From positions 137,632 to 201,631 of the forward strand of contig CAYSKO010000002.1 in the NCBI GenBank assembly GCA_964431835.1: a stretch of DNA of 64,000 nt, in the 5' to 3' direction. The notes beneath the pieces were generated by a model. It saw nothing but the letters and a program-made list of their open reading frames with translations. It was not told the origin of the DNA and made no database searches. The translations under genes were made by a program, and so were the position numbers. This document shows, piece by piece, positions 4,267 to 35,224 of the stretch. Every line of letters starts with the position of its first letter. Within the stretch, counting starts at the first letter, position 1. The stretch is from an uncultured Planctomycetia bacterium. GTDB taxonomy: Bacteria; Omnitrophota; Gorgyraeia; 2-02-FULL-51-18.

Positions 4267-4275
4267 GATTTCCTT

Positions 4276-6190: not shown

Positions 6191-8079
6191 CCGGCCTCCT
6201 TTCCGATTGCTTCGGCGACGCGGGCGCCGGAGCGGCCGTCGAGCGGGCCCACCCACTCCCGCTCGAGCCTTTTTCCGACGCGAGAAACGAGTTCCAGGAA
6301 AGAAGGTTCCCCCGAAAGCGCGCGGTCGACGAGAGTTTTCAAGGAAGCGGCGTCGCGGGCGCAGAGCGCGGATCCTTCTTCCACGAAAACGGGCACCCGG
6401 GTCCGCGAGAGAGGAAAGTAATCCAGCGCGATCGAAGGTTTCCCGAGAACCAGCGATTCGATTAGCGCGTTCGAGTGGAACGAAAGCGTCAGATCGGCGG
6501 CCGCCAGGAGATCCCCCGCAGGAACGTCCGCGGGTGCGATTCTCACGCCCTCGATTCCGGACGCGCGCACCGCGTCCTCGGTCCATTCCGGCTCGAGGTC
6601 GAGCGGGTGCCGCTTCACGACGAGTGTGCAGTCGGAGCGGCCCCCGAGTACCGTCAGCGTGTCGACGAGCGCGCGCCGCTGTGAAAAACGGTTCCGGCGC
6701 GTCTCGATGGCGGGAAAGAGCGTCGTTCCCCAAAAAACGATAAGCTTCCGGTTTCCGGCCGTGCCGAAGCGGCGGCGGAGGGCCGTGGGATCCTGCGTCG
6801 CGCGGATGCGGTCGTAACGCGGGATTCCCGTCAAGTGAACGCGCGCGCGGGAGCCGTTGGCGTTGTAATAGGCGCGTATCCCTTCGCCGCCCAGCGCGAC
6901 CGCCTCCGACGAAACGGGAAAAAGATCGTACTGAAAATCGGAAAAATTGACGCCGTGAGGAATTTGAACGGTTTTCGTCCCGAGGCGGCGCGCCTCGCCG
7001 ACCAACGTCTTCCGGAAGGTCACCGTGTCCTCGTCGACGACGACCGCGGCGAAGCGCTTTCCGGCGAGGAACGATTCGAAGGCCTCCACCCGCTCGGCCG
7101 TTTCCGGAAGCCAACGGTCGAAGAAAAAACGAAGGCGGGGTTCGAAGAGCCGGGACAGATCGCCTTCAGGCGAGCGAAAAGCCCCCGATTCGACCGTTCG
7201 CCGCAGCGCTTCTTCCGTTCCAGGAAAATTCCTCCGGAACGCTTCGAGCCGTTCGCGGCCTTCGGCGCCGATCCGGCTTCGCAGCTCGGGATACGAATAA
7301 TAAGGGACGCCGGCTTTCGCGAGGAATGGCAGCTTCGCCCAGCGGAAATCTTCGTCCAGATAGGCCGCGCCGCGGTCCAGGTGTGCGATCACGGCTTCGA
7401 CGTGCTTCGGAGCCGAGACGAAAAGCACGTCCGCCCGGCAGCGCACTTGGAACGGGCGGACGAGGAAACGGTAAGCGCCGAAAAGAGGCGCTCGCAGCGC
7501 AGATTTCCAACTCGACAGGGGCTTTTCGGTGGAAGCGGCGGGCGCACCGCCTTGGAGGCGGCCCGTCCGCGCGCCGAGGAAGCGGAAGACGTCCTCGCAA
7601 AGGGGTTCTCCCGGCGCGGGAAAAAAACCCTTCACCTGCGGGCGCGGCGTTTCGAAGAAAAGGATTTCGGCGGGACTTTCGGCCTCCTGAAACGCCCGCG
7701 CGCAAACGAGCGTCGTGAGGATCCAGGTCAGGTGAAGCCCGGTGTAGAGTTCGGCGAGTTCCCCCACGTTCCGGCCTCGGTATTCGACGAGCGGACGAAC
7801 CGCAGGGTGCGCGTGCCAGGAACGCGCCAGACGCCACGCTTCGGTTTCCACGCGCGCGGCGGCGGCTTCGTCGAAAGATTCTCGCAGCCAGCGGCAGGAT
7901 ACGCCCCCGCGGCGGAGCGCTTCCGCGGTCCGCTCATCCGACGATACCCAGACGAGCGCAGGGTCATCGGTGGCGGCCCGCCGGGCGGCCTCCGCGTCCT
8001 CTATGCGTTCAACGACGGCCGCTTTTTTCAAACTCTTCCCGGATGGCAGACGCCGAAGCGAAGGTCTTTTCGAACGCAC
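6187..8079 (-). CDS. Putative glycerophosphotransferase/capsule-polysaccharide biosynthesis protein (TagB/TagF-like C-terminal domain). Start uncertain: GTG 8079, or TTG about 8026.
   Basis: C-terminal region with LVVKRHPLD (K-x-HP motif of the CDP-glycerol glycerophosphotransferase family). The ORF overlaps the upstream aminotransferase by 70 nt if started at 8079. Confidence 0.45.
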   Translation of the reverse strand: MRSKRPSLRRLPSGKSLKKAAVVERIEDAEAARRAATDDPALVWVSSDERTAEALRRGGVSCRWLRESFDEAAAARVETEAWRLARSWHAHPAVRPLVEYRGRNVGELAELYTGLHLTWILTTLVCARAFQEAESPAEILFFETPRPQVKGFFPAPGEPLCEDVFRFLGARTGRLQGGAPAASTEKPLSSWKSALRAPLFGAYRFLVRPFQVRCRADVLFVSAPKHVEAVIAHLDRGAAYLDEDFRWAKLPFLAKAGVPYYSYPELRSRIGAEGRERLEAFRRNFPGTEEALRRTVESGAFRSPEGDLSRLFEPRLRFFFDRWLPETAERVEAFESFLAGKRFAAVVVDEDTVTFRKTLVGEARRLGTKTVQIPHGVNFSDFQYDLFPVSSEAVALGGEGIRAYYNANGSRARVHLTGIPRYDRIRATQDPTALRRRFGTAGNRKLIVFWGTTLFPAIETRRNRFSQRRALVDTLTVLGGRSDCTLVVKRHPLDLEPEWTEDAVRASGIEGVRIAPADVPAGDLLAAADLTLSFHSNALIESLVLGKPSIALDYFPLSRTRVPVFVEEGSALCARDAASLKTLVDRALSGEPSFLELVSRVGKRLEREWVGPLDGRSGARVAEAIGKEAG

Positions 8080-9325
8080 GCGCGACGTCGTCCATGTCCC
8101 TGGTCGTAAGCGGGTGGCGGCAGAGTCCGGTCATGAAAAGCTCCTTATCGTGGAGCCTCTCGGTGACCGGACAGCTCCCCTTTTCGTAATTGCGGAGGTT
8201 GGGGCCGGTCTGGAGGTCGAACGGAAACCGAGAGTTCGCGAAAATGCGCCGGTTGCGGTACATAGGCTCGAGGTAGATTGGCCTCACGTAACCCGCGCCC
8301 ACCGGAATCCCCTCAGCCGCGAGCGCCTTGACGAAAAAATCGCGCGAAAGCCCGGCTTTCACCTCGTCATAACGGACGGGGTACGTGAAATACACGTGCG
8401 TGGTTCCTTTTCGGGGCTTCGGGAGGGTCAGCGCCGGAAAGACGGAGAGTTTGTGCGTGAGGTAATCGGCCAGCTGCACGCGGTGTGTCGTGAGCCGGTC
8501 CAATTTGCGGAACTGCGCGCACCCGACCGCCGCTTCGAGCTCGGTCATGCGATAGTTCCAGCCGAGGCAAGGCACGTCCTTGGCGGCTTCCATGTGATCG
8601 GCGACGACTTCGCCGTGGTTACGGACGAGCTGCATCTTGAGCGCCAGGCGCGCGTCGTTTGTGACGGCGACACCGCCCTCGCCGGTGGTGATCGTCTTGT
8701 GCTGGTTGAAGCTGAAGACGCCGACGTCGCCGAGCGTGCCGACCGGCCTCCCCTTATAGAGGGCGCCCGGCGCCTGCGCGCAGTCCTCGACCACTTTCAG
8801 CTTCTGGCGCTTGGCGAGCGCGAGGATCGGGTCCATGTCGGCGGGGCCGCCGAAAAGATGCACGACGAGGATCGCTTTTGTTCGCGGCGTGATACGCTCC
8901 TCGATCTTTCGGGAGTCGAGACAGCAGAATAACTCTTCGATGTCCGAGAACACCGGGATGCCCCCGCACATCACGATCGCCGAGGCGCTCGCGCTCATCG
9001 TATAGGGAGGCACGATCACTTCGTCGCCGGGCTCAACGCCCACGGCGAAAAGAGCCGCGTGGAGCGCGGAGGTGGCCGAATTCATCGCGACCGCATGGCG
9101 CGAGCCGAAGCGTTCGTTGAAAAGGGCTTCGAGCGCCTTCACCTTCGGGCCGCCGAGAAAGGCGTCGCCGGGCTTGGCGATGAATCCCGAAAGCTGGCCC
9201 GTCTCGAGAACGGAAAGGACTTCGTTTCGCTCCTCTTTTCCGAGGACCGGGTGCGGGGGGAACGGTTTCGTCCTCGCCTTCGGGCCGCCGAGGATCGCCG
9301 GTTTTTGGTGACGGGGCATTTTCAT
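8009..9325 (-). CDS. DegT/DnrJ/EryC1/StrS family PLP-dependent aminotransferase (sugar aminotransferase)
   Basis: SATSALHAALFAVGVEPGDEVIVPPYT...FSFNQHKTITTGEGGVAVTND...NHG. ATG overlaps the upstream stop (ATGA). Confidence 0.85.
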   Translation of the reverse strand: MKMPRHQKPAILGGPKARTKPFPPHPVLGKEERNEVLSVLETGQLSGFIAKPGDAFLGGPKVKALEALFNERFGSRHAVAMNSATSALHAALFAVGVEPGDEVIVPPYTMSASASAIVMCGGIPVFSDIEELFCCLDSRKIEERITPRTKAILVVHLFGGPADMDPILALAKRQKLKVVEDCAQAPGALYKGRPVGTLGDVGVFSFNQHKTITTGEGGVAVTNDARLALKMQLVRNHGEVVADHMEAAKDVPCLGWNYRMTELEAAVGCAQFRKLDRLTTHRVQLADYLTHKLSVFPALTLPKPRKGTTHVYFTYPVRYDEVKAGLSRDFFVKALAAEGIPVGAGYVRPIYLEPMYRNRRIFANSRFPFDLQTGPNLRNYEKGSCPVTERLHDKELFMTGLCRHPLTTRDMDDVARAFEKTFASASAIREEFEKSGRR

Positions 9326-10830
9326 CTTCCTTTCAGCTTAGGGAACGCGGCGAGAGCGTTACTCGAGAAAATTTTGACGAGGGTTTTTTTTGTGAATCCG
9401 TAATGCGCGATCTTGCCGAGCGTCCACGCCGGGTTCATGAGCTGGGCGTCCGACGCGAAAAGCACGCGGTCGTCGCCGGCCTCGCGCACGAGCGCGTCTA
9501 AACGCGTCTCGACGACGTCGGCGTGGCTCGTCGCGACGTCGAAGAACACGTTCGGGCTCGCGAAGAGCGGCCCCACGCGCCTGTAGGTCGCGTGCGCGCA
9601 GACGAACCGGAGAGTTTTCCATTTTTTCGCCGCCGCCGCCATGCCGGGAATATGCGCCATCACGGTGAGCCTGCGCTTCTTCGCTTCTGTGAGGATGGGC
9701 GCGTACGCGGGAGCGTCTAGCCCGAGGCCGTAAAGGTCCTGGATCGTCTTCACACCGACGCAAGCACGGTTCTTCGCGTAACGGGCGATTTCGGCGAGCG
9801 ATTCTTCCGGACGGGTCGGATCGACGACCACGAGCCCGGCCACGCGCGGGTCCCTGTCGGCGAGCGAAAAAGTACCCCGGTTCCCCGCTTTGAGATCGCC
9901 GTTCAACGCGCGGATGGAAGAGACGAGCGCGCGCGTGTAGTTGAAGCGGTCGAACTCGCGTGCGAAGAAGCGATCGTCTTTTTCCGGTTCAATGAGGTTC
10001 CAGCCATCGACGTGCCAATGCGTGTCGATCTTTGCCGGCGTCATCACGGGCGCGAAGCGCACGCCCCAGGCCCGGGCGTCGAATGAACGCGGCTTCGGCA
10101 GTCCCAGCACCCGCGCGAGTGTGCCTCCGTAGACCGCCTCGCGCGCTTCGCCGGAAAGCGCGTTTTGAACGAGGCAATGTGCGGCGAGCTCGAGCGATTC
10201 CGGGGCGTTCGAGGCGAAGAAAAGCCGCTCCGCCCCCACCGTTTCGACGAGCCTCCCGATCGCGCCGCTCGGTGTGAGGGACCCGACGTCGAAGAACCAG
10301 TTCGAATGCCGGCGTGCGATCGCGAGCGTGTCCGAAAAACCGTGGTAAGCCCGGCCCCGCATCCAGCGGACCAGAACGGGGCCCTTCAGAAATCCGAGCG
10401 CGCGCTCGATCTCGACGAGTTCCGCGGGCGTGTCGACGCCGAGCTGAAAAGCGAACCCGAGCCGGTCGGCTTCCTTCAAGGCGGCAGCGAGCGCGGGGCT
10501 TCCGAAGCGTGGTTCGTAATAGCGTGGAGAAGAAAGGACCGAAAGAATCCGAACTCCGTCTTTTTTTAACCGCGCGAGATACGCGGGGTCCGCGTAAGCG
10601 TCGAACGAGGCGGGCGAAAGCGTCGCGGCCGGGAGAACCCGCTCCGGATGGCGCCTTGCGAGCGCAACGAGCTTCGAATTCCCTTCCTTCACGTCCGAAA
10701 AAATGCTCTCGTACGAGGAAACCACGGCGGAGGACAACCCGTAACCGTCTAGGAACGAAACGAGCCTCTTTTCGTCGAGCGCAGCGCCCGTCGACGGGTT
10801 TCGGCCGAAGAACACGCCCCCGTCGATCAC
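9322..10830 (-). CDS. Amidohydrolase-family (TIM-barrel metal-dependent hydrolase) protein; apparent tandem two-domain architecture
   Basis: Second half has IDTHWHVDGW (HxH metal motif) and ...FASDAQ. GTG start chosen at the GTGA overlap with the methylase stop (ORF extends to 10860). Confidence 0.55.
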   Translation of the reverse strand: MIDGGVFFGRNPSTGAALDEKRLVSFLDGYGLSSAVVSSYESIFSDVKEGNSKLVALARRHPERVLPAATLSPASFDAYADPAYLARLKKDGVRILSVLSSPRYYEPRFGSPALAAALKEADRLGFAFQLGVDTPAELVEIERALGFLKGPVLVRWMRGRAYHGFSDTLAIARRHSNWFFDVGSLTPSGAIGRLVETVGAERLFFASNAPESLELAAHCLVQNALSGEAREAVYGGTLARVLGLPKPRSFDARAWGVRFAPVMTPAKIDTHWHVDGWNLIEPEKDDRFFAREFDRFNYTRALVSSIRALNGDLKAGNRGTFSLADRDPRVAGLVVVDPTRPEESLAEIARYAKNRACVGVKTIQDLYGLGLDAPAYAPILTEAKKRRLTVMAHIPGMAAAAKKWKTLRFVCAHATYRRVGPLFASPNVFFDVATSHADVVETRLDALVREAGDDRVLFASDAQLMNPAWTLGKIAHYGFTKKTLVKIFSSNALAAFPKLKGR

Positions 10831-11453
10831 GAAACGCCCGTCTTCTTCTCGAAAAGCCACCAGGTCATGTCGTCGAAGCCCCCGGCCTCAAATTCCGGGC
10901 TCCACAGGAAACCGTAATCGACGACGTTCACGGAAAAACGCTCCATGAAAAATTTCCCGAAATCCCGCTTGAAGAGCTTGTCCGGTTCGCCGTGGTACGG
11001 GAGCGAAACCGGCGTGCGGTTGAAATATTCGCAGATAACGATCCAGCGGCGCGAATAAAGGAATACTTTCTCGAGGTTCGCCGCCAGGTCGTCCGGCGCG
11101 ATGTGGATGAGGACGCCGCAGGTGAACGCGAGGTCGAAGCTCGCCGGCTCGAAACTCGACTGGAGGATAGGCCCGTTGAACGAGCGCACCGGCTTCACCC
11201 GTTCGACCGCGGTTCGGTACGCAGCTTCGTTGATCTCGATGAGGCCGAGATCCATCGAAGGATCGACGCGCCGGAGCCCCACGAGATTGCGGCCGATGTT
11301 CGATCCGCATTCGAGGGCCGAGCGCACGCCGGAAGCTTTGCGCAACATCTGCCGCCAGCCTTTTTCTGTGACCGCGTAATCGAAATCGGAATTCCGCTCG
11401 ACGTATCCCTTTCCGAAATTACCCTTCCAGAACTTCTCCTGTTCGACGGCCAT
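10827..11453 (-). CDS. SAM-dependent methyltransferase, resembling pseudaminic-acid-biosynthesis-associated methylases
   Basis: ECGSNIGRNL (motif I), about 208 aa, located inside a NulO cluster. ATG start overlaps the WbuX-like stop by 1 nt (TGATG). Confidence 0.55.
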   Translation of the reverse strand: MAVEQEKFWKGNFGKGYVERNSDFDYAVTEKGWRQMLRKASGVRSALECGSNIGRNLVGLRRVDPSMDLGLIEINEAAYRTAVERVKPVRSFNGPILQSSFEPASFDLAFTCGVLIHIAPDDLAANLEKVFLYSRRWIVICEYFNRTPVSLPYHGEPDKLFKRDFGKFFMERFSVNVVDYGFLWSPEFEAGGFDDMTWWLFEKKTGVS

Positions 11454-12583
11454 CAGGAGGCGTCCCAAATATTGGACTTCGTCCAGTTGCCGCCGGCGTC
11501 CTTCACCCAGACGCGCGCGTCCCGGAAGCGGTCCATCTCGGCGTCGAGCTTCGAGCGTTTCCAGCCGACGTACTCGAGCCAGCGCGGGATATCGCCGGGG
11601 ACGACATGGTCGTACTCGCGGACCATCTCGATTCCCTGCTCGCGGGTCATGACGCCGTTTCGGATGTCCCGGCAGGCGTGGTCAGTGGCGCGGCCGTAAC
11701 CGAACTTCACGAACTTCATGTAATCGTGAATGCCGTTGTCGTGGACGTCGTTCAGGTTCGAATCCTTCCGGTAAGTGCGGTCGAAAGGCCGGTCGTACAT
11801 CTCGAATCCGTAGAGGTCGATCATCTTTTGGAGATGGTCGAGCTGGTTCCAGCCGAAATAATTGGAGATGAAGATACCGCGGAGGCCCAGGCGCTCGATC
11901 TCGTCGTCCGAAGGATACTGTGCCCAAAGGAAATCGTACGGCGCCAAGCCCTCGTTCTCGGGACCCAGGAAATCGCTCCAGTCGTAGCCCCGGCACATGT
12001 GTTCGGTGCGGTATTTCTTCGTGAACTCCACGAGGTCGGCGTAGGAGTGCATGCCGCCCAGGTTCATGAAACCATGCTCGCCGTAGACGAAGAGCTTCGT
12101 GTCGAACTTAGCGGCCATGATGATCGGGAATGTCATGATGCCGATGTGCGTGTGCCAGTTGGGGTCGCCCATACGGGTCATGCCGAGGCGATTCAGTTTT
12201 TTAAGAACGTCGACTTCGGGCGTGAAATGCAGGAAGTCGCCCTTGAAATGGTCCTTCATGCGCTGAATGTTGCGCAGGCCTACGTCGGTGTGGTTGTTCT
12301 CGGCGTAGCAGACGAAGAGAACCTTGAGGCCGTACTCCTTGCAGAAGACGTGAGCCTGATAAAAACTGTCTTTGCCGCCCGAGACGCCGATCACGCAGTC
12401 GTAGCCGGATTTGTTTTTCGAGCGGTACTGGTCGATCAGCTTCTCGAACATCTCCCGGCGACGCTTCCAGTCGACGGCCTTCTGCTCCTCGTGCGTGCGG
12501 CACCCCGAGCAGACGCCGTTCTTGTCGAAAGTCAGCGGCGTCGCGGCGACGCCCGGGTACACGCACTTGGCGCAGTACTGCAT
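11453..12583 (-). CDS. N-acetyl sugar amidotransferase (WbuX/PseA-like, PP-loop)
   Basis: MQYCAKCVYPGVAATPLTFDKNGVCSGCRTHEE...VIGVSGGKDS (PP-loop SGGxDS). Start at internal ATG (residue 123 of ORF 11453..12949). Confidence 0.8.
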   Translation of the reverse strand: MQYCAKCVYPGVAATPLTFDKNGVCSGCRTHEEQKAVDWKRRREMFEKLIDQYRSKNKSGYDCVIGVSGGKDSFYQAHVFCKEYGLKVLFVCYAENNHTDVGLRNIQRMKDHFKGDFLHFTPEVDVLKKLNRLGMTRMGDPNWHTHIGIMTFPIIMAAKFDTKLFVYGEHGFMNLGGMHSYADLVEFTKKYRTEHMCRGYDWSDFLGPENEGLAPYDFLWAQYPSDDEIERLGLRGIFISNYFGWNQLDHLQKMIDLYGFEMYDRPFDRTYRKDSNLNDVHDNGIHDYMKFVKFGYGRATDHACRDIRNGVMTREQGIEMVREYDHVVPGDIPRWLEYVGWKRSKLDAEMDRFRDARVWVKDAGGNWTKSNIWDAS

Positions 12584-12627
12584 TTTCGGAGGCTTCACGG
12601 TCGTTTTCCCTTCCGCGGTCTTTTGAA

Positions 12628-13446
12628 TTAGATGGCTTTTAGTGCCGCACGCGCGTCTACTGGCTTCACGGGGCACCCGGCCTCCGCGAGGCGCCGTTTG
12701 GCGCGCGGGTACGCGTTCTCGGTGAAATTGAAAATGTTGCCCGCCGCGGCCGCAGAGGCGCCCGTCCGCGAAAGGACTTCTTCGAAATCGTCGAACGAAC
12801 CCGCACCCCCGCAGGCGATCACGGGGATTCCGACGGCGCTCGCGACACGGTCGACGATTTCGAGGTCGTAACCGTTCGCCGTACCGTCCCGGTCGATGCT
12901 GTTCAGGAAAATCTCCCCGGCGCCCGCCTCGGCCGCGCGGCGCGCCCAATCAACCGGGTCATCCGGCACCGCCTCGGAGCCCTGCTCGATAAACATTCTA
13001 TGCGATTTACCCTCTTTTTTCACGTCGATTCCGACGACCACGCACTGGCTTCCGAAGTGCCGGGCGATGGTCCCGACGAGCGCGAGGTCCCGGTACGCGG
13101 CGGTGTTCACCACGATCTTGTCGGCCCCGCCGGCGATGATTCGCGCGGCATCTTTGAAATCCCGGATGCGACCGCCGAAGGTGAGCGGCATGAAACATTT
13201 CCGCGATATCTCTTTGAGGATAGAAAGAACGTCCCGGTCCACGCGGATCTTATGGTCGTCGCGTTTCAGGTCGTGCTCCCCCTCGCGGGTGATGTCGATA
13301 TAGATGAGCTCATCCGCCGCCCAGTCGTTCAGCCGCTCGAGCTGGTTAATCGGATTCCCGAACTCCCGGAAATCGGAGAAAGTCTGGCTCCGCACGATGA
13401 GCCCATTTTTGAGGAACAGGACCGGGATCAGGCGTTTTTTCAGCAT
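12628..13446 (-). CDS. HisF-like cyclase subunit (imidazole glycerol phosphate synthase homolog, WbuZ-type)
   Basis: MLKKRLIPVLFLKNGLIVRS...ADELIYIDI...GADKIVVNTAA...IACGGAG. Confidence 0.85.
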   Translation of the reverse strand: MLKKRLIPVLFLKNGLIVRSQTFSDFREFGNPINQLERLNDWAADELIYIDITREGEHDLKRDDHKIRVDRDVLSILKEISRKCFMPLTFGGRIRDFKDAARIIAGGADKIVVNTAAYRDLALVGTIARHFGSQCVVVGIDVKKEGKSHRMFIEQGSEAVPDDPVDWARRAAEAGAGEIFLNSIDRDGTANGYDLEIVDRVASAVGIPVIACGGAGSFDDFEEVLSRTGASAAAAGNIFNFTENAYPRAKRRLAEAGCPVKPVDARAALKAI

Positions 13447-14048
13447 GGCAACTCCAGAAACCGCTTCAAGAGCCGCAAGCCGTGTCCGTGCGACTTTTCC
13501 GGATGGAACTGGACGCCGTAGAGACGGCGTTTATCCGAACCGACCGCGCACGCGAAAATCTGTCCGTAATCCGCGGTCGCGAGCGTGTCCGCGGCGGACG
13601 CGGGTTCCAAGCAGTAGCTGTGGACGAAATAGTAATCGGTCGGCGGATCGGAGGCGAAAAGCGCGTTCGGAGCGGCCGTGCGTGCCTCGTTCCAGCCGAC
13701 GTGGGGAATCCGGAGACCCGTTTCATTCAAGCGGCGCACTCGCCCGGGAATGACGTCCAGCCCTTCCGTCGGCCCGCCCTCGTCGCCTTCGGACGCCAAT
13801 AGCTGCATGCCGAGACAGATGCCGAGAAACGGCTTTTTTCCCGCCATCCTGCGAAGCGGCGCCGAAAGGCCGCGCTCGTTCAAATTTTTCATTCCGGAGG
13901 CGAAGGCCCCCACGCCCGGGAGAACGACCCGTTCGGCGCGTTCAAGCTCGTTTGGATCGGAGGTCAAGATCACGCGCGCGCCCAGGAACTCGAAAGCGTT
14001 CCGCACGGACTGCACGTTTCCCATGCCGTAGTCGACGATCGCGAGCAC
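13440..14048 (-). CDS. HisH-like glutamine amidotransferase subunit (WbuY-type)
   Basis: (M)LAIVDYGMGNVQSV...LPGVGAF...LGICLGMQLL...GVQFHPEKS (class I GATase C/H/E triad context). GTG start with GAGGT Shine-Dalgarno. Confidence 0.85.
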   Translation of the reverse strand: MLAIVDYGMGNVQSVRNAFEFLGARVILTSDPNELERAERVVLPGVGAFASGMKNLNERGLSAPLRRMAGKKPFLGICLGMQLLASEGDEGGPTEGLDVIPGRVRRLNETGLRIPHVGWNEARTAAPNALFASDPPTDYYFVHSYCLEPASAADTLATADYGQIFACAVGSDKRRLYGVQFHPEKSHGHGLRLLKRFLELPC

Positions 14049-14049
14049 G

Positions 14050-15078
14050 TTACCTCGAACTCATCCGGACGGTGCGTTTCTTGAGCGGAAGAGCGACGCG
14101 CTTGCCGCCCGATTCGAACGAAAACCGGAGCGCGGTTGCGATCTCGAGGCTCGCACGGCCGTCCTCCACCGAGCAAATGGGTTTCTCGCGCCGCTCGACG
14201 GAACCAACGAGATTCTTGACGAGCCCGGGCAGGCCCTCGCCGAGATCGCCGGTTTTAGACTTCGCGGCTTTCAGCGCGGAATAGCCCGAAAAAAGCGGAT
14301 GCGGAACGACGTCCCAGACGTCCGCTCGCGTGCCGCTTTCGGCCAGGCGCACGCGCTTTTTCGTGCCGTAGATGTCCGCCTCGAAAACGAGATAGCTCGC
14401 GACGTCGAGCGCCGTGAGCGTGCAGCCGAAGCCTCGCTCGAAATGAAGGTAGCCGGAATACGACGGGTCGGCGTCGCCGAGTTTCTTTGCGGGGTCCGCC
14501 CACACCCAATCCACGCCGCCGAAGAAAAAAGAGAGGAAATCGAAAAGGTGCGTTCCCGTATTCACCGCACCGGCCGTGTAATAAGCGGACGTGCCCTGAA
14601 TTCGTCCGAGCTCCCCCGCGTCAACCGCGCGCTTGAGTTCGTGGTAAAGCGCGACGTAGCGCCGTGTGTAGTTCACGAGAAGCGGAACCTTCGCTTTCCG
14701 GGAGAGCGTAGCCATCGCGTCCGAGGCGGCGAGCGTGTCGGCGACGGGTTTCTCGCAGATCACGCCCCGCACGCCCGCTTTCACGGCCTTTTCGAAAATC
14801 GCGCGGTGCGTCCCGTTCCAGGTGCAGATCGAAAGGACGTCGGGCTTCACCTCCTCGAGCATGCGGTCGAGATCGGAATAAAGGGCCCGTACGCCCCACT
14901 TTTTTCCGAAAGCGGCGAGCTTCGCGGCGTCCAAATCGCACGCGGCGGCGAGCTCGGTCCGCGGATCGGCGAGATAGGCCTGGGCGTGCGTCGAGACGCC
15001 TTTCCGTTTGGGATCGGCCGCGAACTCGCTCGCGATACGTCCGCAGCCGACGATCGCGGCGCGCAGTTTCCGGCTCAT
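14050..15078 (-). CDS. Gfo/Idh/MocA family NAD(P)-dependent oxidoreductase
   Basis: MSRKLRAAIVGCGRIASEFAA...ICEKPVA. ATG overlaps the upstream stop (ATGA). Confidence 0.8.
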   Translation of the reverse strand: MSRKLRAAIVGCGRIASEFAADPKRKGVSTHAQAYLADPRTELAAACDLDAAKLAAFGKKWGVRALYSDLDRMLEEVKPDVLSICTWNGTHRAIFEKAVKAGVRGVICEKPVADTLAASDAMATLSRKAKVPLLVNYTRRYVALYHELKRAVDAGELGRIQGTSAYYTAGAVNTGTHLFDFLSFFFGGVDWVWADPAKKLGDADPSYSGYLHFERGFGCTLTALDVASYLVFEADIYGTKKRVRLAESGTRADVWDVVPHPLFSGYSALKAAKSKTGDLGEGLPGLVKNLVGSVERREKPICSVEDGRASLEIATALRFSFESGGKRVALPLKKRTVRMSSR

Positions 15079-15824
15079 CGGACCGCCTTCTGCGCGATGT
15101 GCGCGTTCTTGGCGGCGACGTCCGGGTTCGCGCGGAGGAAATCCATCACGTCGCGGCTCGTGAAACGAGGGTTATTCGGATAAAGCGCGTCGTAGACCGT
15201 CGCGCACACTTCGTAGTCCTCGACGCGGTCCACGCAGATGCGTATCTGCGGGCCGTACAGTTCGGACGGGGCCGTGAGACAGCCGAGCCTGAACTCCTGA
15301 GGGTGCTCGTAGATGTAGAGCGACACGTTCTCGCGGTCCGGCGGGTCCTGGGTGAGCGTGTCGACCTTCGCGAGCGTCGCGGTCGAGAAAATTTGCGTGT
15401 CGAGGCCGCGCGGGTAGGTGCGTACGAGGATATTGCTCGCGTAATCGACGTCGTGCGCGCCGTAAAAACGGGCGAGCTCGTCGATGATGTCCGGGTCCGC
15501 GAACGGGCAGTCGCCGGTGAGCTCGACGATCGTTTCCGCCTTGTGGTGCTTCGCCGCTTCGAGGACGCGCAGAAGGACGTCGTCCTCGCTTCCGCGGAAC
15601 ACGGCGACGCCCGCCTTCTTTCCCCATTCCACGACGGCGTCGTCCTGGGCGTTCACGGTCGTGCAGATCACGACGTCGGTTACGCTTTTCGCGCGGCGGG
15701 CGCGTTCCACCAGTCGCTCCAGCGACGGCTTCCCGGCGAGCGGTTTCAGGATTTTCCCCGGCAGGCGGCTCGACGTCATGCGGGCCTCGACGGTGGCGAT
15801 CGTTTTTCCCAAGATTCTAGGCAT
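15075..15824 (-). CDS. Cytidylyltransferase of the SpsF/PseF (CTP_transf_3) type; candidate CMP-nonulosonate synthetase
   Basis: MPRILGKTIATVEARMTSSRLPGKILKPL (ARMxSxRLPGK motif). Start at internal ATG (residue 68 of ORF 15075..16025). Confidence 0.7.
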   Translation of the reverse strand: MPRILGKTIATVEARMTSSRLPGKILKPLAGKPSLERLVERARRAKSVTDVVICTTVNAQDDAVVEWGKKAGVAVFRGSEDDVLLRVLEAAKHHKAETIVELTGDCPFADPDIIDELARFYGAHDVDYASNILVRTYPRGLDTQIFSTATLAKVDTLTQDPPDRENVSLYIYEHPQEFRLGCLTAPSELYGPQIRICVDRVEDYEVCATVYDALYPNNPRFTSRDVMDFLRANPDVAAKNAHIAQKAVR

Positions 15825-17295
15825 TGCGGACAGCCTCCTTTTTGAGGATGAAATTCTTGAGCGTGGAGCGTAGAAGCCCTTCCTTGCGCTCGAACCGAAG
15901 GATGAGCGGCGCGAACGCCGCTGTGAAAAAAACAGCGCGCAGAACAGCGCCGGAACCGGGGGTGGCCCTCGAGAAAAGGATCTCGGCGCCTGCGACGACG
16001 GCGGCGAAATATACGAACGTGCCAAGGATGCGGCCGAGCAGCTTTAAAAATTCCGCACGCGCAAGGATACGCGTGAACGCGTAGCCGAACACCGACAGAA
16101 AAAAAACGAAGTACGCGGCCGAGGTCGCGGCGGCGACGCCTTCGATTCCCCAGCCCGCGCGGAGAGCGCCCCAGATGAGGGCCGCCGCGACGCCCACCAT
16201 GGCGACGTAAACCGGCACGAGCTTCCCCTGCCGGTTCGTCGTAAAAAGAACGCTCGAAGCCATTTCGTTCACGGCGATGAAGTAATACCCGACGAGAAGA
16301 ATTCGCATCGCGCCCAAACCTCCCTCGAACCGCGGCAGGAAAAAATGAATGAGCGGAGGCAGGCAGACGAGCACCGTTCCGATGATCGCAGGCAGGTAAT
16401 GCGCGAGCGCGAGCGTCACCCGGACGAATCGTCCCTTTGCCTCGTCGAGCGAACCCGTACGCCCGTAGCTTTCCTGGATGTGCGGGAAGATGATGATGTG
16501 GGCGAAGCGCCCGAGGGCGCTCACCTGCTGGACTGCCATGAGCGCCACCGTGTAGAGACCGAGCGCGGCGTAGCCGAGCGTCCGGCTGATCAGGATCGCG
16601 TCGAGCGAAAGAAACGTGATGAGGCAGTAACTCAAGATCACCATCGGGAAACCGATGCGCACGAGGCCGGCGACTTCGCGCGGGTCGAAAGCCGGCGCCA
16701 GCCGCACGCCCGAGACCCGCCACGCGAGCGCAGCCGAGCACGCGGTGGCCGCCAGGAAGCCGAAGGCGAGCCCGACCACCCCGCCCTTCCACGCGAGCGC
16801 GAGCGGAAACGCTGCCACGAAGAACATGTTCGCGACGATGAGAAGGCTCAGTTCGGACACCTTCTTGAGCGTCCGGAGGAGCGTGAGAAAATAATTGTAC
16901 GCCTGCGTCGCGATTGCAAGCGGGGCCATCACGAAAAGACCCTTCCGGAGGAGGGGGTCGTCGATGAAGAAGGCGGCGATCCCGGCGATCACGGCAGCGG
17001 AGACGATCGACGCCCCGGCTGTGAAAGTGAACGCGTTGTTCTCGAGCCGCTTCACGCGGGACTCGTCGCCTGCGCCGGTGGCCTGCGGCACCTCGCGCAG
17101 TAGTGCGTCGCGCGTTCCGAGGTCCGAATATTCCGCGTAGCTCCCGAACACCTTCATCACGGCCCAGTATCCGGCGCCGGCGGTCCCCAGGAGCGCCTTC
17201 ATCGCCACGCTCACGACGATACCGATCGCCATCGCCGTGTAATTGGCGACGGTGTACTTGAGCGTATCTTTGACGACGAGATCCTTAAGAGACAC
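15817..17295 (-). CDS. Wzx-like polysaccharide flippase (MOP/MATE-type polysaccharide biosynthesis protein)
   Basis: About 12 predicted TM helices in the Wzx pattern. GTG start chosen at the 1-nt overlap with the upstream TAG stop; the ORF's R-rich extension to 17604 is not credible. Confidence 0.65.
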   Translation of the reverse strand: MSLKDLVVKDTLKYTVANYTAMAIGIVVSVAMKALLGTAGAGYWAVMKVFGSYAEYSDLGTRDALLREVPQATGAGDESRVKRLENNAFTFTAGASIVSAAVIAGIAAFFIDDPLLRKGLFVMAPLAIATQAYNYFLTLLRTLKKVSELSLLIVANMFFVAAFPLALAWKGGVVGLAFGFLAATACSAALAWRVSGVRLAPAFDPREVAGLVRIGFPMVILSYCLITFLSLDAILISRTLGYAALGLYTVALMAVQQVSALGRFAHIIIFPHIQESYGRTGSLDEAKGRFVRVTLALAHYLPAIIGTVLVCLPPLIHFFLPRFEGGLGAMRILLVGYYFIAVNEMASSVLFTTNRQGKLVPVYVAMVGVAAALIWGALRAGWGIEGVAAATSAAYFVFFLSVFGYAFTRILARAEFLKLLGRILGTFVYFAAVVAGAEILFSRATPGSGAVLRAVFFTAAFAPLILRFERKEGLLRSTLKNFILKKEAVRNA

Positions 17296-18538
17296 TAGAT
17301 CGCGCGCCTGTAGAGGTCGCGTTCGAGTTTTTCCCGGACTTTCGCGACGTCGTCCGGCCCCATCGATTGGCGATAAACGGCTTTTCCTTGCGGCTCGGGC
17401 CATCCGTCCTGCTTCTCGAGGAAACGGCGAAGGCCCCCGACCATCACGTCCCGCTGGTGCGCGATCATGCGGGTGCGCACCTGGGCGTACCCCTCGCCGC
17501 GCCGCACGGGCATGTCCGCCTGATAGATGATGGGACCCGAGTCTATCTTTGCGGTGGCCAGATGGCAGGTCGCGCCGACCGGATCGTCGTTCAGGATCGC
17601 CCATTCCACGCAGCTGCAGCCGCGGTAACCCGGGAGGATGCCCGGATGGCAGTTGAGAACCCCTTTCCGCGCTTTCCTTAGGATTCTCTCGGAAAGAACC
17701 GCCGTTCCCCCGAGAATCAGAACGCCGGGGTCAAGCGCGGCCAAAAGCTCCTCGCAGGCGGCCGAACCGTGGTCTTTCACGTAATGGATTCGGGGAGCCG
17801 TGTTCCCCAGCGCGTCTCCCAAGAAAAGCGGCGCGTAGAGACCGCCCGTGCGCTCAGCGACGATCGCGCGATCGCGCTCGGCGTACGCGTCGCCTTCGAA
17901 GACGACGCTGTGCACCCGGATGCCCGCTTCGCGAAACCCTTTCAAGTATTCGAGGCCCATGAGATTGCCGTACCGCGTAAGGACCACGACGCGGAGCGCG
18001 CCGGGGTGTTTGGGATTCGTCTTGGACCACTGGACCACGTCGTGATGGAACCCGTCTTTCAGGAATGCATCCCGAAGAACGCCTTCTTCGACCATGCCCA
18101 GACGCGCCGCGATGCGGGCCATCGCGGCGTTTCGTGCGGTGGCCCCTACGAAGACGCGGTGGAGATCGAGGGAGCCGAAGACATGCTCGAGGAGAAGGCG
18201 GCAGGCTTCCGTGCCGACGCCTTTCCCCCATGCGTTGCGTTCGCCGATGAGCAGGGATATCTCGGCGGAACGGCTCGTGTTCGAGATAGAATTCAGCGAC
18301 GCGTTCCCGACGTGGCGGTTGCCGTCCTTCAGGATGATCGCGTACGCGAGCGTGTCATGGGAAATGGAGACCTCGGCGACGTACGCGCGGAGCTTCTCGG
18401 CGGTGTAGCCCGAACCGTGACGGTTGTCGCGGCAGACCTCAGAATCGTTCATCCAGGAAAGCCAGGCGCCCGACACGTGGCGCGCTAGGAGCGGTTCCAG
18501 CCGGACCTTCGCGCCTTCGAGCGGCCGCAGGTCGAGCG

Positions 18539-18542
<4 letters not shown>
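17295..18542 (-). CDS. Bifunctional fusion: N-terminal GNAT acetyltransferase (RimL/PseH-like) + C-terminal formyltransferase domain (Formyl_trans_N)
   Basis: GNAT: NAWGKGVGTEA. Formyltransferase: LNCHPGILPGYRG (N-x-H) and HLATAKIDSGPII (H...D...G-P-I). GTG start overlaps the PseC-like stop (GTGA). Confidence 0.75.
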
Positions 18543-21106
<2,564 letters not shown>

Positions 21107-21107: not shown

Positions 21108-22145
21108 TTAAAAGTCCCCAGCCTTCAAGCCGTCTCCAAGCGCGATCGCGCGCTTCGCGCGCTTGCCTTCGGCCCGGGAAAGAAAACGCGGATGCATCCC
21201 CTTCGTCCGCGAGCCCGGGCGCAGGACCGCGACGTTGTCGCCTTCGCGCAGCGTGTCGCCGCGGCGGATCGTGCGGATCGCCTGTACGGCGCGCTGGGCG
21301 TACGCGTGAAGCTCTTTCTCTTCGGGCAGAACTTCCTTCTTGCCGGTCCCGAGCGCGGACGACGCCGCGTGCACCGCGTGCACCAAAATCGAGAGCTCCC
21401 GGCACGTGACCGCAAATGCGTGGTCGGGTCCGGGGAGCGAGCGATCAAGCGTGAAATGTTTCTCTATCAGCGTGGCTCCCAGCGCGACGGCCACGGCGGG
21501 CGCCACGAGTGGATCGAGCGAGTGATCGGATAGCCCCACCGGGACGCGGTATCGCGTGAGGAGAGTCGGGATCGCGCTCAGGTTCAGCGCTTCGAACGGC
21601 GCCGGGTACTTCGCCGTGCACTGCATGAGCGACAGGTTCTTTCCGCCGTGGCGGCGGAATTCGGCGACAGCCCAGTCGATGTCGTCGAGCGTGGAGGCGC
21701 CGGTGGAAAGGATCGTCGGTTTGCGCGAGCGGGCGGCCAGGCGAAGCAGAGCGGGATGCGTGATTTCGTAGGAGGCGATCTTGTGGACGCGCACGTACGG
21801 GTCGACGGCGCGGAAATCGGCTTCGGAAAAAGGCGTCGTCATGAACGCGATGCGGCGCTTGCGGCAGCGTGCGGCGAGTTTCGGCACCATCTCGTAAGGC
21901 ATTTCGAGGTTTTTGAACAGTTCCGTTATGGGCTTCGAGATGCCGCTCTTGGAAAGGTAGCCACTGACGCCGGCGTTCGAAACGTACACGGTGTCAGCAC
22001 GGTAGGTTTGAAATTTGACCGCGTCGGCACCCGCTTCCGCTGCGGCGTCCACCAGCGCGAAGGCCCTCTTCAGATCGCGGACCGCGGATCCAGCCCGCCA
22101 GTTCGAACCGGCCTCAGCGATGACGAACACCGATGGACGCTTCAA
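21108..22145 (-). CDS. N-acetylneuraminate/pseudaminate synthase family (NeuB/PseI) with C-terminal SAF domain
   Basis: VFVIAEAGSNW...AGADAVKFQTY...KIASYEI...STGASTLDDI...; C-terminal SAF/antifreeze-like domain. TTG start overlaps the HTH-gene stop (TTGA). Confidence 0.85.
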   Translation of the reverse strand: MKRPSVFVIAEAGSNWRAGSAVRDLKRAFALVDAAAEAGADAVKFQTYRADTVYVSNAGVSGYLSKSGISKPITELFKNLEMPYEMVPKLAARCRKRRIAFMTTPFSEADFRAVDPYVRVHKIASYEITHPALLRLAARSRKPTILSTGASTLDDIDWAVAEFRRHGGKNLSLMQCTAKYPAPFEALNLSAIPTLLTRYRVPVGLSDHSLDPLVAPAVAVALGATLIEKHFTLDRSLPGPDHAFAVTCRELSILVHAVHAASSALGTGKKEVLPEEKELHAYAQRAVQAIRTIRRGDTLREGDNVAVLRPGSRTKGMHPRFLSRAEGKRAKRAIALGDGLKAGDF

Positions 22146-28693: not shown

Positions 28694-28694
28694 G

Positions 28695-29510
28695 TCAGAA
28701 ATGATTTCTCGAAAGGTCTTTCCACTCGGCGACGCGGTAGCCCGCCCTCTCGAACGCGACCACGTCCCCGCGCGACGGAAGCCCGTAATAGCGGGACCCG
28801 GCGGCCGCAGGCGCGGCGCCGGCCGGGGCATCCGCTTTCGCCAGCGTCTCGCGGACCGCGCGGCGCATCGTCTCGGGAAAATTTCGGTAAACGTCCGTGT
28901 AGAACGCGAGCATGGACGAATGCGGGCCGGATTCGCGGCGCTCCTCGAAAAGCACGCGGCCGGTATCGACTCCTTCGTCCACGAGGTGGCAGGTTACGGC
29001 CGGAGGCAACCCGTTCAGGCGCGACCACAGAAACGGAAAGAGCCCGCGGCACTGCGGCAGGACGCCGGCATGCTTGTTCACGACGCCCGCGCGGGCGGCT
29101 TTCAGCACCGGCCCTTTCAAGACGTCGTTGAGGAAAATCAGAACGACGTCGACGCGGTTCTTCATGATCCACTCGGCGACCGCCGGATCGTTCGGATCCG
29201 CCGCGTGCGCGATCGGCACGCCTGCTTTCTCGAACGCGTTCCAGCCTCCGGGCATCGCAAAAAGACCCTTCACCGCGCTCTTCATCGAATAAAGCGAAAA
29301 AAGAAGCGTGTTCTTTACGCCGAACGTGCGGAAATACCAGCCGAGCGCCTCGCTCCCGCGCATGCGGGCGAGCTTCGACGGAAAAATACGGACACCGACG
29401 ACGTCGTACTCCGCCCGCAGCGCCGAAAGTGCGCGATACCAGGCAGGCAGCGCCCAGGTCCGGTCATCGGCCGTCAGGATAGCGATCCGCGGGCGGAGGC
29501 TTTCGGTCAC
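28695..29510 (-). CDS. Stand-alone formyltransferase-domain protein (Formyl_trans_N; ArnA-N-terminal/sugar N-formyltransferase-like)
   Basis: VVNKHAGVLPQCRGLFPFLWS (N-x-H ... SLLP-like) and HLVDEGVDTGRVLF (H...D). GTG overlaps the upstream stop (GTGA). Confidence 0.65.
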   Translation of the reverse strand: MTESLRPRIAILTADDRTWALPAWYRALSALRAEYDVVGVRIFPSKLARMRGSEALGWYFRTFGVKNTLLFSLYSMKSAVKGLFAMPGGWNAFEKAGVPIAHAADPNDPAVAEWIMKNRVDVVLIFLNDVLKGPVLKAARAGVVNKHAGVLPQCRGLFPFLWSRLNGLPPAVTCHLVDEGVDTGRVLFEERRESGPHSSMLAFYTDVYRNFPETMRRAVRETLAKADAPAGAAPAAAGSRYYGLPSRGDVVAFERAGYRVAEWKDLSRNHF

Positions 29511-34650: not shown

Positions 34651-34657
34651 CCGCTCG

Positions 34658-34816: not shown

Positions 34817-34829
34817 GGGTATCCTTTCT

Positions 34830-35213: not shown

Positions 35214-35224
35214 CGGCGCTCCCA

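Follow-up and report, generated by a model that had tools for sequence, protein, structure and literature searches.

The N-acyl groups carried by pseudaminic (Pse) and legionaminic (Leg) acids (acetyl, formyl, acetamidino and hydroxybutyryl among others) set antigenicity, recognition by phages and lectins, and vaccine epitopes, and to our knowledge the enzymes that add the non-acetyl ones are mostly unknown. In the Arn pathway, the formyltransferase (FT) of ArnA is fused to another pathway enzyme (UDP-L-Ara4N formyltransferase / UDP-GlcA decarboxylase), and ArnD later removes the formyl group. Within Pse clusters, PseG-PseH fusions (Glyco_tran_28_C plus GNAT) occur, such as the 515-aa protein of the related locus L018. 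PMC11040635, with reference to Reimer et al. 2018, describes PseJ of Anoxybacillus kamchatkensis as a stand-alone UDP-4-amino-4,6-dideoxy-L-AltNAc N-formyltransferase, and no other characterised Pse formyltransferase was found in the literature searched. Formyltransferases have also been predicted in Leg clusters, namely HrrPV6_1050 of Halorubrum (PMC6137143) and one paired with a deacetylase in Ca. Kuenenia (bioRxiv 10.64898/2026.04.20.719630). The first-pass annotation of the present locus knew of no GNAT-formyltransferase architecture in characterised Pse/Leg pathways, and our search of the literature likewise gave no description of one.

We have analysed such an architecture in a single gene of the window, that is, the whole stretch of 64,000 nucleotides. 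On the one hand, its FT half resembles PseJ in the Formyl_trans_N fold, the Asn/His/Asp triad, the location in a Pse cluster with PseB and PseC, and the expected N-formylation of an amine of the Pse pathway. On the other hand, PseJ (PDB 6CI2-6CI5) is a stand-alone protein of about 190-217 aa, whereas the FT of the window is fused to a GNAT and only weakly similar to it, and the substrate nitrogen may differ. The GNAT half has in common with PseH the fold, a position right after PseC that fits the same step and a weak TIGR03585 match, but it scores below the cut-off of that model and has its own VCRDNRHG loop. ArnA also joins a sugar formyltransferase to an enzyme of the same nucleotide-sugar pathway; however, its partner is an SDR dehydrogenase and not a GNAT, it has another domain order, works in another pathway on another substrate, and the Arn formyl group is transient. 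In the PseG-PseH fusions a GNAT is joined to a Pse enzyme in the same kind of cluster, but the partner is a UDP-sugar hydrolase and the L018 GNAT belongs to a different subgroup. The formyltransferases of Halorubrum and Ca. Kuenenia lie in nonulosonic-acid (NulO) clusters too, where their proposed role is to formylate a nucleotide sugar once it has been de-N-acetylated, a scheme that we also propose for the FT half, but they are stand-alone, belong to a Leg and not a Pse-type pathway, and have a predicted function only.

The gene is a minus-strand ORF of 415 aa plus stop with a GTG start, uninterrupted in the ORF listing, and its parts are as follows.

17295..18542, minus strand: whole GNAT-FT gene (ORF listing, Pfam, identical protein in other assemblies)
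18009..18542, minus strand: GNAT (Acetyltransf_3) domain, residues about 1-178 (Pfam, Foldseek, dN/dS)
18414..18437, minus strand: GNAT loop motif V36-C-R-D-N-R-H-G43 (fusion-clade alignment)
18213..18230, minus strand: GNAT motif A W105-G-K-G-V-G110, the acetyl-CoA pyrophosphate-binding loop (family conservation)
17994..18008, minus strand: linker of about 5 residues (about 179-183), H-P-G-A-L (alignment with the split pair of locus L004)
17298..17993, minus strand: Formyl_trans_N domain, residues about 184-415 (Pfam, Foldseek, dN/dS)
17646..17654, minus strand: catalytic N297-C-H299 (alignment to PurN, 3AUF, and family alignment)
17541..17543, minus strand: catalytic D334 (alignment to PurN, 3AUF, and family alignment)

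The first-pass annotation had read this ORF as a GNAT and a formyltransferase in one protein immediately downstream of a PseC-like aminotransferase, and both the architecture and the position were borne out. In the domain search it had proposed, Acetyltransf_3 (PF13302) matched residues 14-151 (77.9 bits, cut-off 25.4; E 1.6e-21) and Formyl_trans_N (PF00551) matched residues 261-367 (57 bits, cut-off 26.1; E 2.7e-15), with no internal stop or frameshift; on the family alignment the FT domain begins at about residue 184, upstream of the edge of the Pfam match. NCBIfam matches of RimL, SpeG and PseH type in the N-terminal half, and of Fmt, PurN and ArnA in the C-terminal half, all stayed under their equivalog cut-offs. 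The AlphaFold2 model of the fusion has a mean pLDDT of 92.5 and a pTM of 0.74, and pLDDT drops to 83-86 around the linker. The gene is translationally coupled on both sides: its GTG start overlaps by 4 nt (GTGA) the stop of a PseC that passes the TIGR03588 cut-off, and its TAG stop and the GTG start of the flippase gene that follows have one base in common.

The GNAT half is closest to solved GNATs of RimL, YdaF, SpeG and AAC(6') types, and Foldseek returned TTHA1799, YdaF and SpeG at TMt 0.77-0.88; no PseH structure was among its PDB matches at E<=1. The earlier description of this half as RimL/PseH-like stands for the GNAT domain with its RimL-type matches, but is weakened as regards PseH, since as a PseH equivalog (TIGR03585) it reached 20.4 bits against a cut-off of 93.1 (E 4.3e-4). 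Motif A is well conserved, with G108 kept in 78, G106 in 70 and W105 in 68 of 79 sequences. In the loop motif, V36, R38, R41, H42 and G43 are invariant within the fusion clade; the stand-alone GNATs of L033, L034 and L035 have the same loop and that of L004 nearly so, and the alignment lacks it in the GNATs of L006, L011, L018, L023 and L049. Judging from these sequences, the loop marks the GNAT subgroup located after PseC, and by analogy with GNAT structures in general it is probably part of the acceptor site. When the GNAT half by itself served as query, a word-indexed search for homologues gave only six matches, and a metagenome scan seeded on the GNAT motifs returned stand-alone GNAT relatives only and no new fusions.

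The FT half is of the N10-formyl-tetrahydrofolate-dependent type. Its N297, H299 and D334 fall on the catalytic triad of PurN (3AUF) in the alignment, in agreement with the intact N-x-H...D signature noted earlier. The residues lie within L-N297-C-H299-P-G-I-L-P-G-Y-R-G and I-D-S-G-P, the folate loop H-P-x-x-L-P-x-x-R-G is present, and among 110 family members N297 is kept in 104, H299 in all 110 and D334 in 109. The predicted fold is similar to those of solved sugar N-formyltransferases, ArnA-FT and WbkC: Foldseek gave the ArnA FT domain as the best match (E 3.9e-14), together with WbkC (E 3e-13), at TMt 0.51-0.67. We rejected the FT half as a PseJ orthologue, considering that PseJ matched at E 1.5e-5 (27.9 bits over 83 residues) and ranked about 47th, with PurN (E 1.5e-11), WbkC, Fmt and the LgrA F domain among the PDB matches ahead of it.

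Because the GNAT and FT genes of L004 are split with a 4-nt overlap, and an error of 1 nt could mimic a fusion, the ORF might be suspected of being two adjacent genes joined through a missed frameshift or stop, as the first-pass annotation had asked. However, the identical 415-aa protein is present on at least three contigs from different sources (NCBI, Logan, GEM and JGI assemblies), and a variant at least 90% identical is also found in JGI. Eight proteins have the same architecture, one identical (P0001) and seven others 45-74% identical, and P0038 is a further one; these orthologues keep a single ORF, and the linker aligns in frame without a gap. We therefore dismissed an assembly or sequencing artefact, whose probability we regard as practically negligible. 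Purifying selection on both halves likewise speaks for a real fusion, dN/dS against L003 being 0.19 (GNAT) and 0.15 (FT).

Fusion of GNAT and FT is rare, yet it has arisen repeatedly and with either domain first. Of 182 relatives retrieved, about 12 are GNAT-FT and 3 are FT-GNAT fusions (Pfam-confirmed). For five of them (P0040, P0045, P0048, P0095 and P0140) the nearest relative is in each case a stand-alone protein, which implies that at least four to five fusions were independent. In L004 and L005 the order is PseC-GNAT-FT-cytidylyltransferase with GNAT and FT split and an ATGA overlap, and L006 has separate genes in the order GNAT-FT-WbuX. Recurrent fusion in both orders, together with split overlapping pairs after PseC, indicates that the two activities are functionally coupled, which strengthens the earlier idea that they work jointly.

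The neighbouring genes of the window are the following.

8009..9325, minus strand: second DegT-family aminotransferase, DegT2 (domain match)
9322..10860, minus strand: protein of 512 aa, Amidohydro_2 domain at its C-terminal end (domain match)
11453..14048, minus strand: acetamidino module (HisH 13440-14048, WbuZ/HisF-like 12628-13446, WbuX 11453-12949)
14050..15078, minus strand: GFO/IDH/MocA oxidoreductase, GFO1 (domain match)
15075..15824, minus strand: CTP_transf_3 cytidylyltransferase, presumed CMP-nonulosonate synthetase (domain match)
15817..17295, minus strand: Wzx-type flippase, Polysacc_synt_3 (domain match, junction sequence)
18539..19720, minus strand: PseC aminotransferase, 393 aa (TIGR03588, 463.6 bits against 423.5)
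19713..20681, minus strand: PseB, inverting UDP-GlcNAc 4,6-dehydratase (TIGR03589, 516.9 bits against 407.75)
20678..21106, minus strand: small stand-alone GNAT of about 142 aa between NeuB and PseB (Acetyltransf_3, E 3.2e-9)
21108..22145, minus strand: NeuB/PseI-type nonulosonate synthase (Pfam NeuB, E 3e-77)
28695..29510, minus strand: FT2, stand-alone formyltransferase of a different subfamily (Formyl_trans_N, E 3.3e-8)

The canonical six-enzyme Pse pathway (PseB, C, H, G, I, F) is incomplete here, as only PseB and PseC pass their cut-offs. The synthase is under the cut-offs of both the NeuB and the PseI models of NCBIfam, and the CTP_transf_3 enzyme is under that of PseF. A Pfam or NCBIfam scan over practically all high-GC3 ORFs of 150 aa or more in the window turned up neither a canonical PseH nor a PseG (Glyco_tran_28_C), and since PseG was not found the pathway may not be canonical Pse. 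The small GNAT overlaps the PseB start, resembles the fused GNAT weakly and is a second candidate N-acetyltransferase. The block CTP_transf_3-GFO-DegT is conserved and recurs in related loci, as does the 512-aa Amidohydro_2 protein beside WbuX and FT, and DegT2 would be the source of a second amino group. The true start of the WbuX amidotransferase ORF is probably near 12630.

The GNAT and FT subfamilies sit almost only in NulO clusters, and their hosts include Omnitrophota, Planctomycetota, SAR11, Prochlorococcus, Bdellovibrio-like bacteria and CPR bacteria. Throughout the close clade (the window, L002, L003, L004 and L005) the fused-type GNAT follows PseC, and L034 has PseC-GNAT-cytidylyltransferase without FT. 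Over 27 genome loci, the immediate neighbours of the FT subfamily are WbuX (7), DegT2 (7), GNAT (3) and NeuB (3); L008 and L035 have Amidohydro_2 beside FT, and L007 and the P0009 contig have an Amidase close by. L018 combines a canonical PseG-PseH-type protein with an FT of the fused subfamily and a related GNAT. L010 and L023 have FT with PseB and PseC, with no DegT2 within 10 kb. L002 has an extra FT of 205 aa, which is Fmt/ArnA-like and not PseJ-like.

The first-pass annotation had also proposed that FT2 and the fused enzyme may together make N-formylated sugars at this locus. FT2 is a real formyltransferase, with catalytic N-K-H and D residues, and is closer to the dTDP-sugar FT, LgrA and PseJ types (E 1.2e-7 with PseJ), but the joint product is weakened as a proposal. 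With 31% identity over 115 aa and different gene sets, the two are not supported as cooperating paralogues. FT2 lies in a separate set of SDR, FT, deacetylase-family protein, GT2 and GT-C, which mirrors the Arn pathway in domain content, so that by analogy formylation there may be transient. FT2 is thus poor evidence for an N-formylated final glycan, because the Arn pathway removes the formyl group again.

We tentatively favour, as a possibility somewhat short of an even chance, that the fused protein is a bifunctional N-acyltransferase of a pseudaminic-acid-type NulO pathway that would acylate two different amines; which amines these are we infer from gene neighbourhood only. The GNAT half would acetylate the 4-amino group placed on the UDP-sugar by PseC, the future N7-acetyl, and so would do the PseH job as a non-orthologous GNAT. 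This role is suggested because the GNAT follows PseC in the close clade, because L034 has PseC-GNAT without FT, and because canonical PseH and PseG were not found in the window ORFs scanned. The second amine, which the FT half would formylate, would lie on nucleotide-sugar intermediates of the same pathway and be provided either by the conserved GFO-oxidoreductase/DegT2 pair or by de-N-acetylation through the Amidohydro_2 or Amidase neighbours. A different, late amine is suggested by the WbuX and DegT2 neighbours, by the nearby Amidohydro_2 or Amidase and by L018, where FT accompanies PseG-PseH. In a Leg cluster with deacetylase and formyltransferase, formylation was seen at the CMP-sugar level (bioRxiv 10.64898/2026.04.20.719630), and the acetamidino group is formed at the CMP-sugar stage (PMC5378307). 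The product would be a mixed N-acetyl/N-formyl NulO, probably acetamidino-bearing too, and the fusion would keep both acylations stoichiometric and on one intermediate pool. Against acylation of two amines by one protein, the small GNAT beside PseB could be the PseH equivalent, the fused GNAT stays far under the PseH cut-off, and the GNAT of L018, which lacks the VCRDNRHG loop, may not be a functional equivalent. In L010 and L023, which have no DegT2 nearby, the FT could act on the PseC amine in a PseJ-like way.

Both halves might instead use the same PseC-made 4-amino group and give a mixture of, or a switch between, 7-N-acetyl and 7-N-formyl pseudaminic acid. We consider this unlikely. In its favour, the gene directly follows PseC, PseJ formylates exactly the PseC-made amine (PMC11040635), L010 and L023 have FT with PseB and PseC and no DegT2 nearby, and L034 and L004 differ only by the presence of FT, which fits an add-on glycoform. 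However, competitors for one substrate gain little from repeated fusion in both orders, the FT subfamily adjoins DegT2 or WbuX more often than PseC, and the likeness to PseJ is weak beside that to PurN. L018 also has a canonical PseH-type domain. Returning to acylation of two amines, the protein may also belong to a widespread accessory module of cytidylyltransferase, GFO oxidoreductase, DegT2, fused-type FT, WbuX amidotransferase(s) and Amidohydro_2 or Amidase, which would build undescribed NulO chemistry; we regard this as rather unlikely. One possibility within such a module is that oxidation and transamination of the CMP-sugar introduce a third amine, which is then N-formylated, and another is that a WbuX paralogue makes N-formimidoyl by amidating the FT-installed N-formyl; nothing relevant on a triamino NulO was found in the literature searched.

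It is quite unlikely, in our judgement, that the formyl group is transient as in the Arn pathway, driving an unfavourable transamination before it is removed by an amidohydrolase or converted by an amidotransferase, so that the final sugar is not N-formylated. ArnA and ArnD set the precedent, the FT adjoins DegT2 and WbuX as often as counted above, and Amidohydro_2 or Amidase genes lie near FT in the window, L007, L008, L013, L018, L035 and the P0009 contig; yet we know of no deformylase in the Amidohydro_2 family, many FT loci are without an amidohydrolase, and there is good documentation of N-formyl NulOs as end products. Other proteins have GNAT or FT-like domains without catalytic function, and the GNAT half falls short of the PseH equivalog model, so one half could be an inert binding, scaffold or regulatory module beside a single real activity. 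This we consider very unlikely, as the N/H/D residues and motif A are conserved across the family, dN/dS is similarly low in both halves, and stand-alone versions of both are common with the same motifs.

In summary, the observation of a fused GNAT-FT was confirmed, and its earlier functional interpretation was supported in part. Nothing is overturned, as either chemistry is familiar, and so are fused enzymes of sugar pathways. In the organism, the NulO made with this enzyme would be exported on a lipid carrier and become part of a surface glycan. Being compact, the fused GNAT-FT is a candidate enzyme for making mixed N-acyl NulOs by chemo-enzymatic routes. The fusion and its split and reverse-order relatives provide a Rosetta-stone link between two uncharacterised subfamilies.

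GNAT-FT, the fused acetyltransferase-formyltransferase protein, is encoded by a single ORF of 415 aa with a GTG start, in the domain order that the first-pass annotation had claimed. An Acetyltransf_3 GNAT domain (residues 14-151, E 1.6e-21) precedes a Formyl_trans_N (FT) domain (residues 261-367, E 2.7e-15), both well over the Pfam gathering score, and alignment with stand-alone relatives places the true start of the FT domain at about residue 184, only about 5 residues past the end of the GNAT. The N-x-H...D signature is intact, as had been proposed: the catalytic Asn/His/Asp of PurN have their counterparts in LN297-C-H299-PGILPGYRG and in D334 of IDSGP on alignment, and N297, H299 and D334 are kept in 104/110, 110/110 and 109/110 FT-domain relatives. 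The GNAT motif A (W105-G-K-G-V-G110) is also conserved among relatives. All NCBIfam matches were sub-threshold, namely Fmt, PurN and ArnA for the C-terminal half and RimL, SpeG and PseH for the N-terminal half, where the PseH model TIGR03585 reached 20.4 bits (cut-off 93.1). The position directly downstream of PseC also holds, since the GNAT-FT start and the stop of a gene that passes the curated PseC model overlap as GTGA (463.6 bits, cut-off 423.5). The gene before PseC passes the PseB model (516.9 bits, cut-off 407.75), and at its other end GNAT-FT has one base of its stop codon in common with the start (GTG) of a Wzx-type flippase. These features show one polypeptide with two predicted acyltransferase domains, which have intact catalytic motifs and different types of donor, and its predicted co-translation with PseC.

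The identical protein is present in NCBI, Logan and GEM assemblies, a variant of >=90% identity occurs in JGI, and seven more proteins of 45-74% identity, as well as the truncated P0038, have the same single-ORF architecture. On the strength of the identical protein across assemblies and the single ORF in these relatives, we rejected split genes or an undetected frameshift, and an artefactual fusion is scarcely credible. Against the 74%-identical orthologue at the related locus L003, dN/dS was 0.19 (GNAT half) and 0.15 (FT half), at a dS of ~1.1-1.2 that is close to saturation and still informative. As judged from these ratios, both halves are maintained by evolution, and it is very improbable that one of them is inert. 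The AlphaFold2 model, built from 36 sequences, was confident throughout (mean pLDDT 92.5, pTM 0.74). Foldseek gave structural counterparts for each half separately: GNATs of the RimL/YdaF/SpeG type for the N-terminal one (TMt 0.77-0.88), and for the C-terminal one ArnA-FT and WbkC, which are sugar N-formyltransferases (E ~4e-14). It found no solved chain that spans both, and the top query-normalised TM-score was 0.41.

We scanned 1.84 billion cluster representatives exhaustively with HMMER and, with the hits of a word-indexed search added, obtained 182 relatives.

Domain arrangements among the 182 relatives
GNAT-FT order: 12
FT-GNAT order: 3
FT alone: 99
GNAT alone: 58
GNAT-GNAT: 8
four GNAT repeats: 2

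Both fused orders were confirmed by Pfam. By nearest-neighbour identities, the clade of the window protein (P0001-P0008 and P0038) is a single fusion lineage, and P0040, P0045, P0048, P0095 and P0140 are each nearest to stand-alone proteins, so that at least 4-5 independent fusions have occurred. The fusion itself is rare: in 185,579 species-representative genomes, no single ORF joined GNAT to FT, 26 loci had only a stand-alone FT, and one locus, L006, had a GNAT and an FT in overlapping, adjacent frames (in the order GNAT, FT, WbuX). L004 and L005 keep PseC, GNAT (183 aa), FT (243 aa) and cytidylyltransferase unfused, with stop and start overlapping as ATGA. Fusion that recurs in either order, along with kept adjacency, is a classical signature of two activities of the same pathway, and the comparison shows the predicted GNAT and FT activities to be functionally coupled across evolution. 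In surface-glycan pathways, the GNAT subfamily is often found fused to other domains: it also occurs in tandem (P0050, P0055, P0073, P0078, P0104, P0108, P0142, P0168), joined to regions that look SAM-methyltransferase-like by eye (P0053, P0065, P0170), and joined to a Glyphos_transf (CDP-glycerol glycerophosphotransferase-like) domain (P0071).

GNAT-FT belongs to a long, tightly coupled operon.

Operon around GNAT-FT, minus strand, in transcription order
21108-22145: NeuB-type synthase
20678-21106: small GNAT, ~142 aa, TTG start (Acetyltransf_3, E 3.2e-9)
19713-20681: PseB, curated model passed
18539-19720: PseC, curated model passed
17295-18542: GNAT-FT
15817-17295: Wzx-type flippase
15075-15824: CTP_transf_3 cytidylyltransferase
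14050-15078: GFO/IDH/MocA (GFO) oxidoreductase
13440-14048: HisH, acetamidino module
12628-13446: WbuZ, acetamidino module
11453-12949: WbuX, acetamidino module
9322-10860: Amidohydro_2 protein, 512 aa, domain C-terminal
8009-9325: second DegT aminotransferase (DegT2), 438 aa
6187-8079: BFO_1060/TIGR04396-like protein, 630 aa, candidate nonulosonic acid (NulO) transferase

The small GNAT lies between NeuB and PseB, its stop overlapping the PseB ATG; it has no NCBIfam match, its homologues adjoin NeuB in L015 and L020, and it may alternatively fill the PseH role. Despite bona fide PseB and PseC, no PseG (Glyco_tran_28_C) was found in any scanned ORF of the window. In L002, a 441-aa HAD+NUDIX protein (4205-5530) between NeuB and PseB could provide an alternative two-step release of the free sugar from UDP, by pyrophosphatase and then phosphatase. 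The Amidohydro_2 protein, a candidate de-N-acylase whose N-terminal ~325 aa have no family match, recurs beside WbuX and FT in the window, L008, L013, L018 and L035. The C-terminus of the 630-aa protein hits two models below their cut-offs, BFO_1060 family glycosyltransferase and TIGR04396 (surface carbohydrate), and its N-terminal 460 aa have no family assignment.

When 27 genome loci and 19 metagenome loci were probed by BLAST with window proteins, NeuB, PseB/C, cytidylyltransferase, GFO, DegT2 or WbuX turned up in ~23 of the 27 FT loci from genomes. Members of the FT subfamily nearly always lie within NulO clusters, in Omnitrophota, Planctomycetota, Bacteriovoracaceae, SAR11, Prochlorococcus, CPR bacteria and others. 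Its immediate neighbours in the genome loci were WbuX (7 loci), DegT2 (7), GNAT (3) and NeuB (3), and Amidohydro_2 or Amidase genes recur beside it (L007, L008, L013, L018, L035, the P0009 contig). The GNAT subgroup with the loop motif VCRDNRHG directly follows PseC in the window, L002-L005 and L034, DegT2 in L033 and PseB in L035. Two loci are the most telling: in L034, PseC, GNAT and cytidylyltransferase occur with no FT, and L018 holds a canonical PseG-PseH-type protein (Glyco_tran_28_C + GNAT, 515 aa), an FT-subfamily member and a related GNAT. A block of CTP_transf_3 cytidylyltransferase, GFO and 438-aa DegT recurs in NulO clusters across many phyla (window, 8009-9325 and 14050-15824; L007, L011, L015, L016, L018, L019, L022, L032). 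This block could perform oxidation and transamination at the CMP-sugar level, and we know of no characterised example.

Considering that the GNAT half follows PseC in every close relative, stands there without FT in L034 and occurs where canonical PseH is absent, we infer that it may take the PseH role. In the most parsimonious account, to which we give somewhat less than even chances, the GNAT half would acetylate the PseC-generated amine and the FT half would formylate a second amine, either from the conserved GFO/DegT2 pair or unmasked by de-N-acetylation. Alternatively, both halves, one PseH-like and the other PseJ-like, would compete for the PseC amine and yield mixed glycoforms, which we consider unlikely. 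In the Arn pathway, the formyl group is lost again once the sugar has been passed to the lipid carrier; a transient, Arn-style formylation by GNAT-FT is quite improbable. For the account with two amines, late modification at the nucleotide-sugar level has precedents in the Ca. Kuenenia Leg cluster, which has a deacetylase and a formyltransferase and for which formylated and free-amine CMP-NulOs were detected (bioRxiv 10.64898/2026.04.20.719630), and in the formation of the acetamidino group at the CMP stage (PMC5378307). A nonulosonic acid that is tri-N-substituted or N-formimidoyl is a conceivable, though rather unlikely, product of the accessory module.

A second, stand-alone formyltransferase (FT2) had been taken as a further sign of possible N-formylated products.

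FT2 and its gene set, minus strand
29507-30871: SDR
28695..29510: FT2, N-K-H and D present
27758-28831: polysaccharide-deacetylase-family (Polysacc_deac_1) protein
26705-27715: GFO oxidoreductase, sub-threshold likeness to archaeal UDP-GlcNAc 3-dehydrogenase
~25614-26650: WecB-like epimerase
23915-25204: GT2, top NCBIfam match ArnC, far under cut-off
22441-23934: PMT_2 GT-C transferase

FT2 is real and has its N-K-H and D, but it belongs to a different subfamily from the fused FT (31% identity over 115 aa) and lies in an Arn-like set, and by itself it is no argument for N-formylated end products. Its top PDB matches were dTDP-4-amino-4,6-dideoxyglucose formyltransferase, the LgrA F domain and PseJ (E 1.2e-7). 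The set parallels ArnA-DH, ArnA-FT, ArnD, ArnC and ArnT in domain content only, and suggests a possible lipid-linked amino-sugar transfer with transient formylation at 22441-30871.

The whole 64-kb window is devoted to glycan biosynthesis, including a WbpA/B/E/D-like set for a 2,3-diacetamido sugar (47661-60223, minus strand) and a cluster of glycan-decorating enzymes (30941-39049).

Other glycan genes
58886-60223, minus: UDP-sugar 6-dehydrogenase
57840-59075, minus: GFO
56851-57858, minus: SDR
55580-56905, minus: C-methyltransferase with Zn-binding domain
54846-55583, minus: GT2
50017-50595 and 47661-48368, minus: two LbH acetyltransferases
48914-50122, minus: DegT
38051-39049: methyltransferase
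37036-38046: second SGNH/GDSL protein
35225-37039: carbamoyltransferase
33358-34650: 430-aa ORF, no family assigned
30941-32278, plus: SGNH/GDSL protein, AlgX-like

Three WecB-type UDP-GlcNAc 2-epimerase genes (662-1855, 25614-26650, 32237-33424; minus strand) all score over the WecB cut-off and far under that of NeuC. Three PMT_2/GT-C membrane glycosyltransferases (4276-6156, 22441-23934, 43057-45249; minus strand) suggest that several transfers from lipid-linked donors take place at the periplasmic face. Adjoining the glycan locus, a gene at 39142-43035 (minus strand) encodes a 1297-aa protein that combines BNR/sortilin repeats with fn3 and with a LamG (concanavalin-like) domain; it may be a secreted or surface protein that binds or processes glycans.

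Among known systems, PseH occurs as a stand-alone GNAT or in fusion with PseG, and ArnA joins a sugar formyltransferase to another enzyme of its own pathway. PseJ stands alone and resembles the FT half of GNAT-FT only distantly, and our literature search found no other characterised Pse formyltransferase. It also found no description of a GNAT-formyltransferase fusion, in keeping with the first-pass annotation, to which the architecture was unfamiliar in Pse/Leg pathways. GNAT-FT is two familiar chemistries in an uncharacterised, rare but recurrent combination. To our knowledge, the widespread accessory NulO-modification module that houses it has been worked out by nobody, and we regard GNAT-FT not as a surprise but as a useful lead for glycobiologists.
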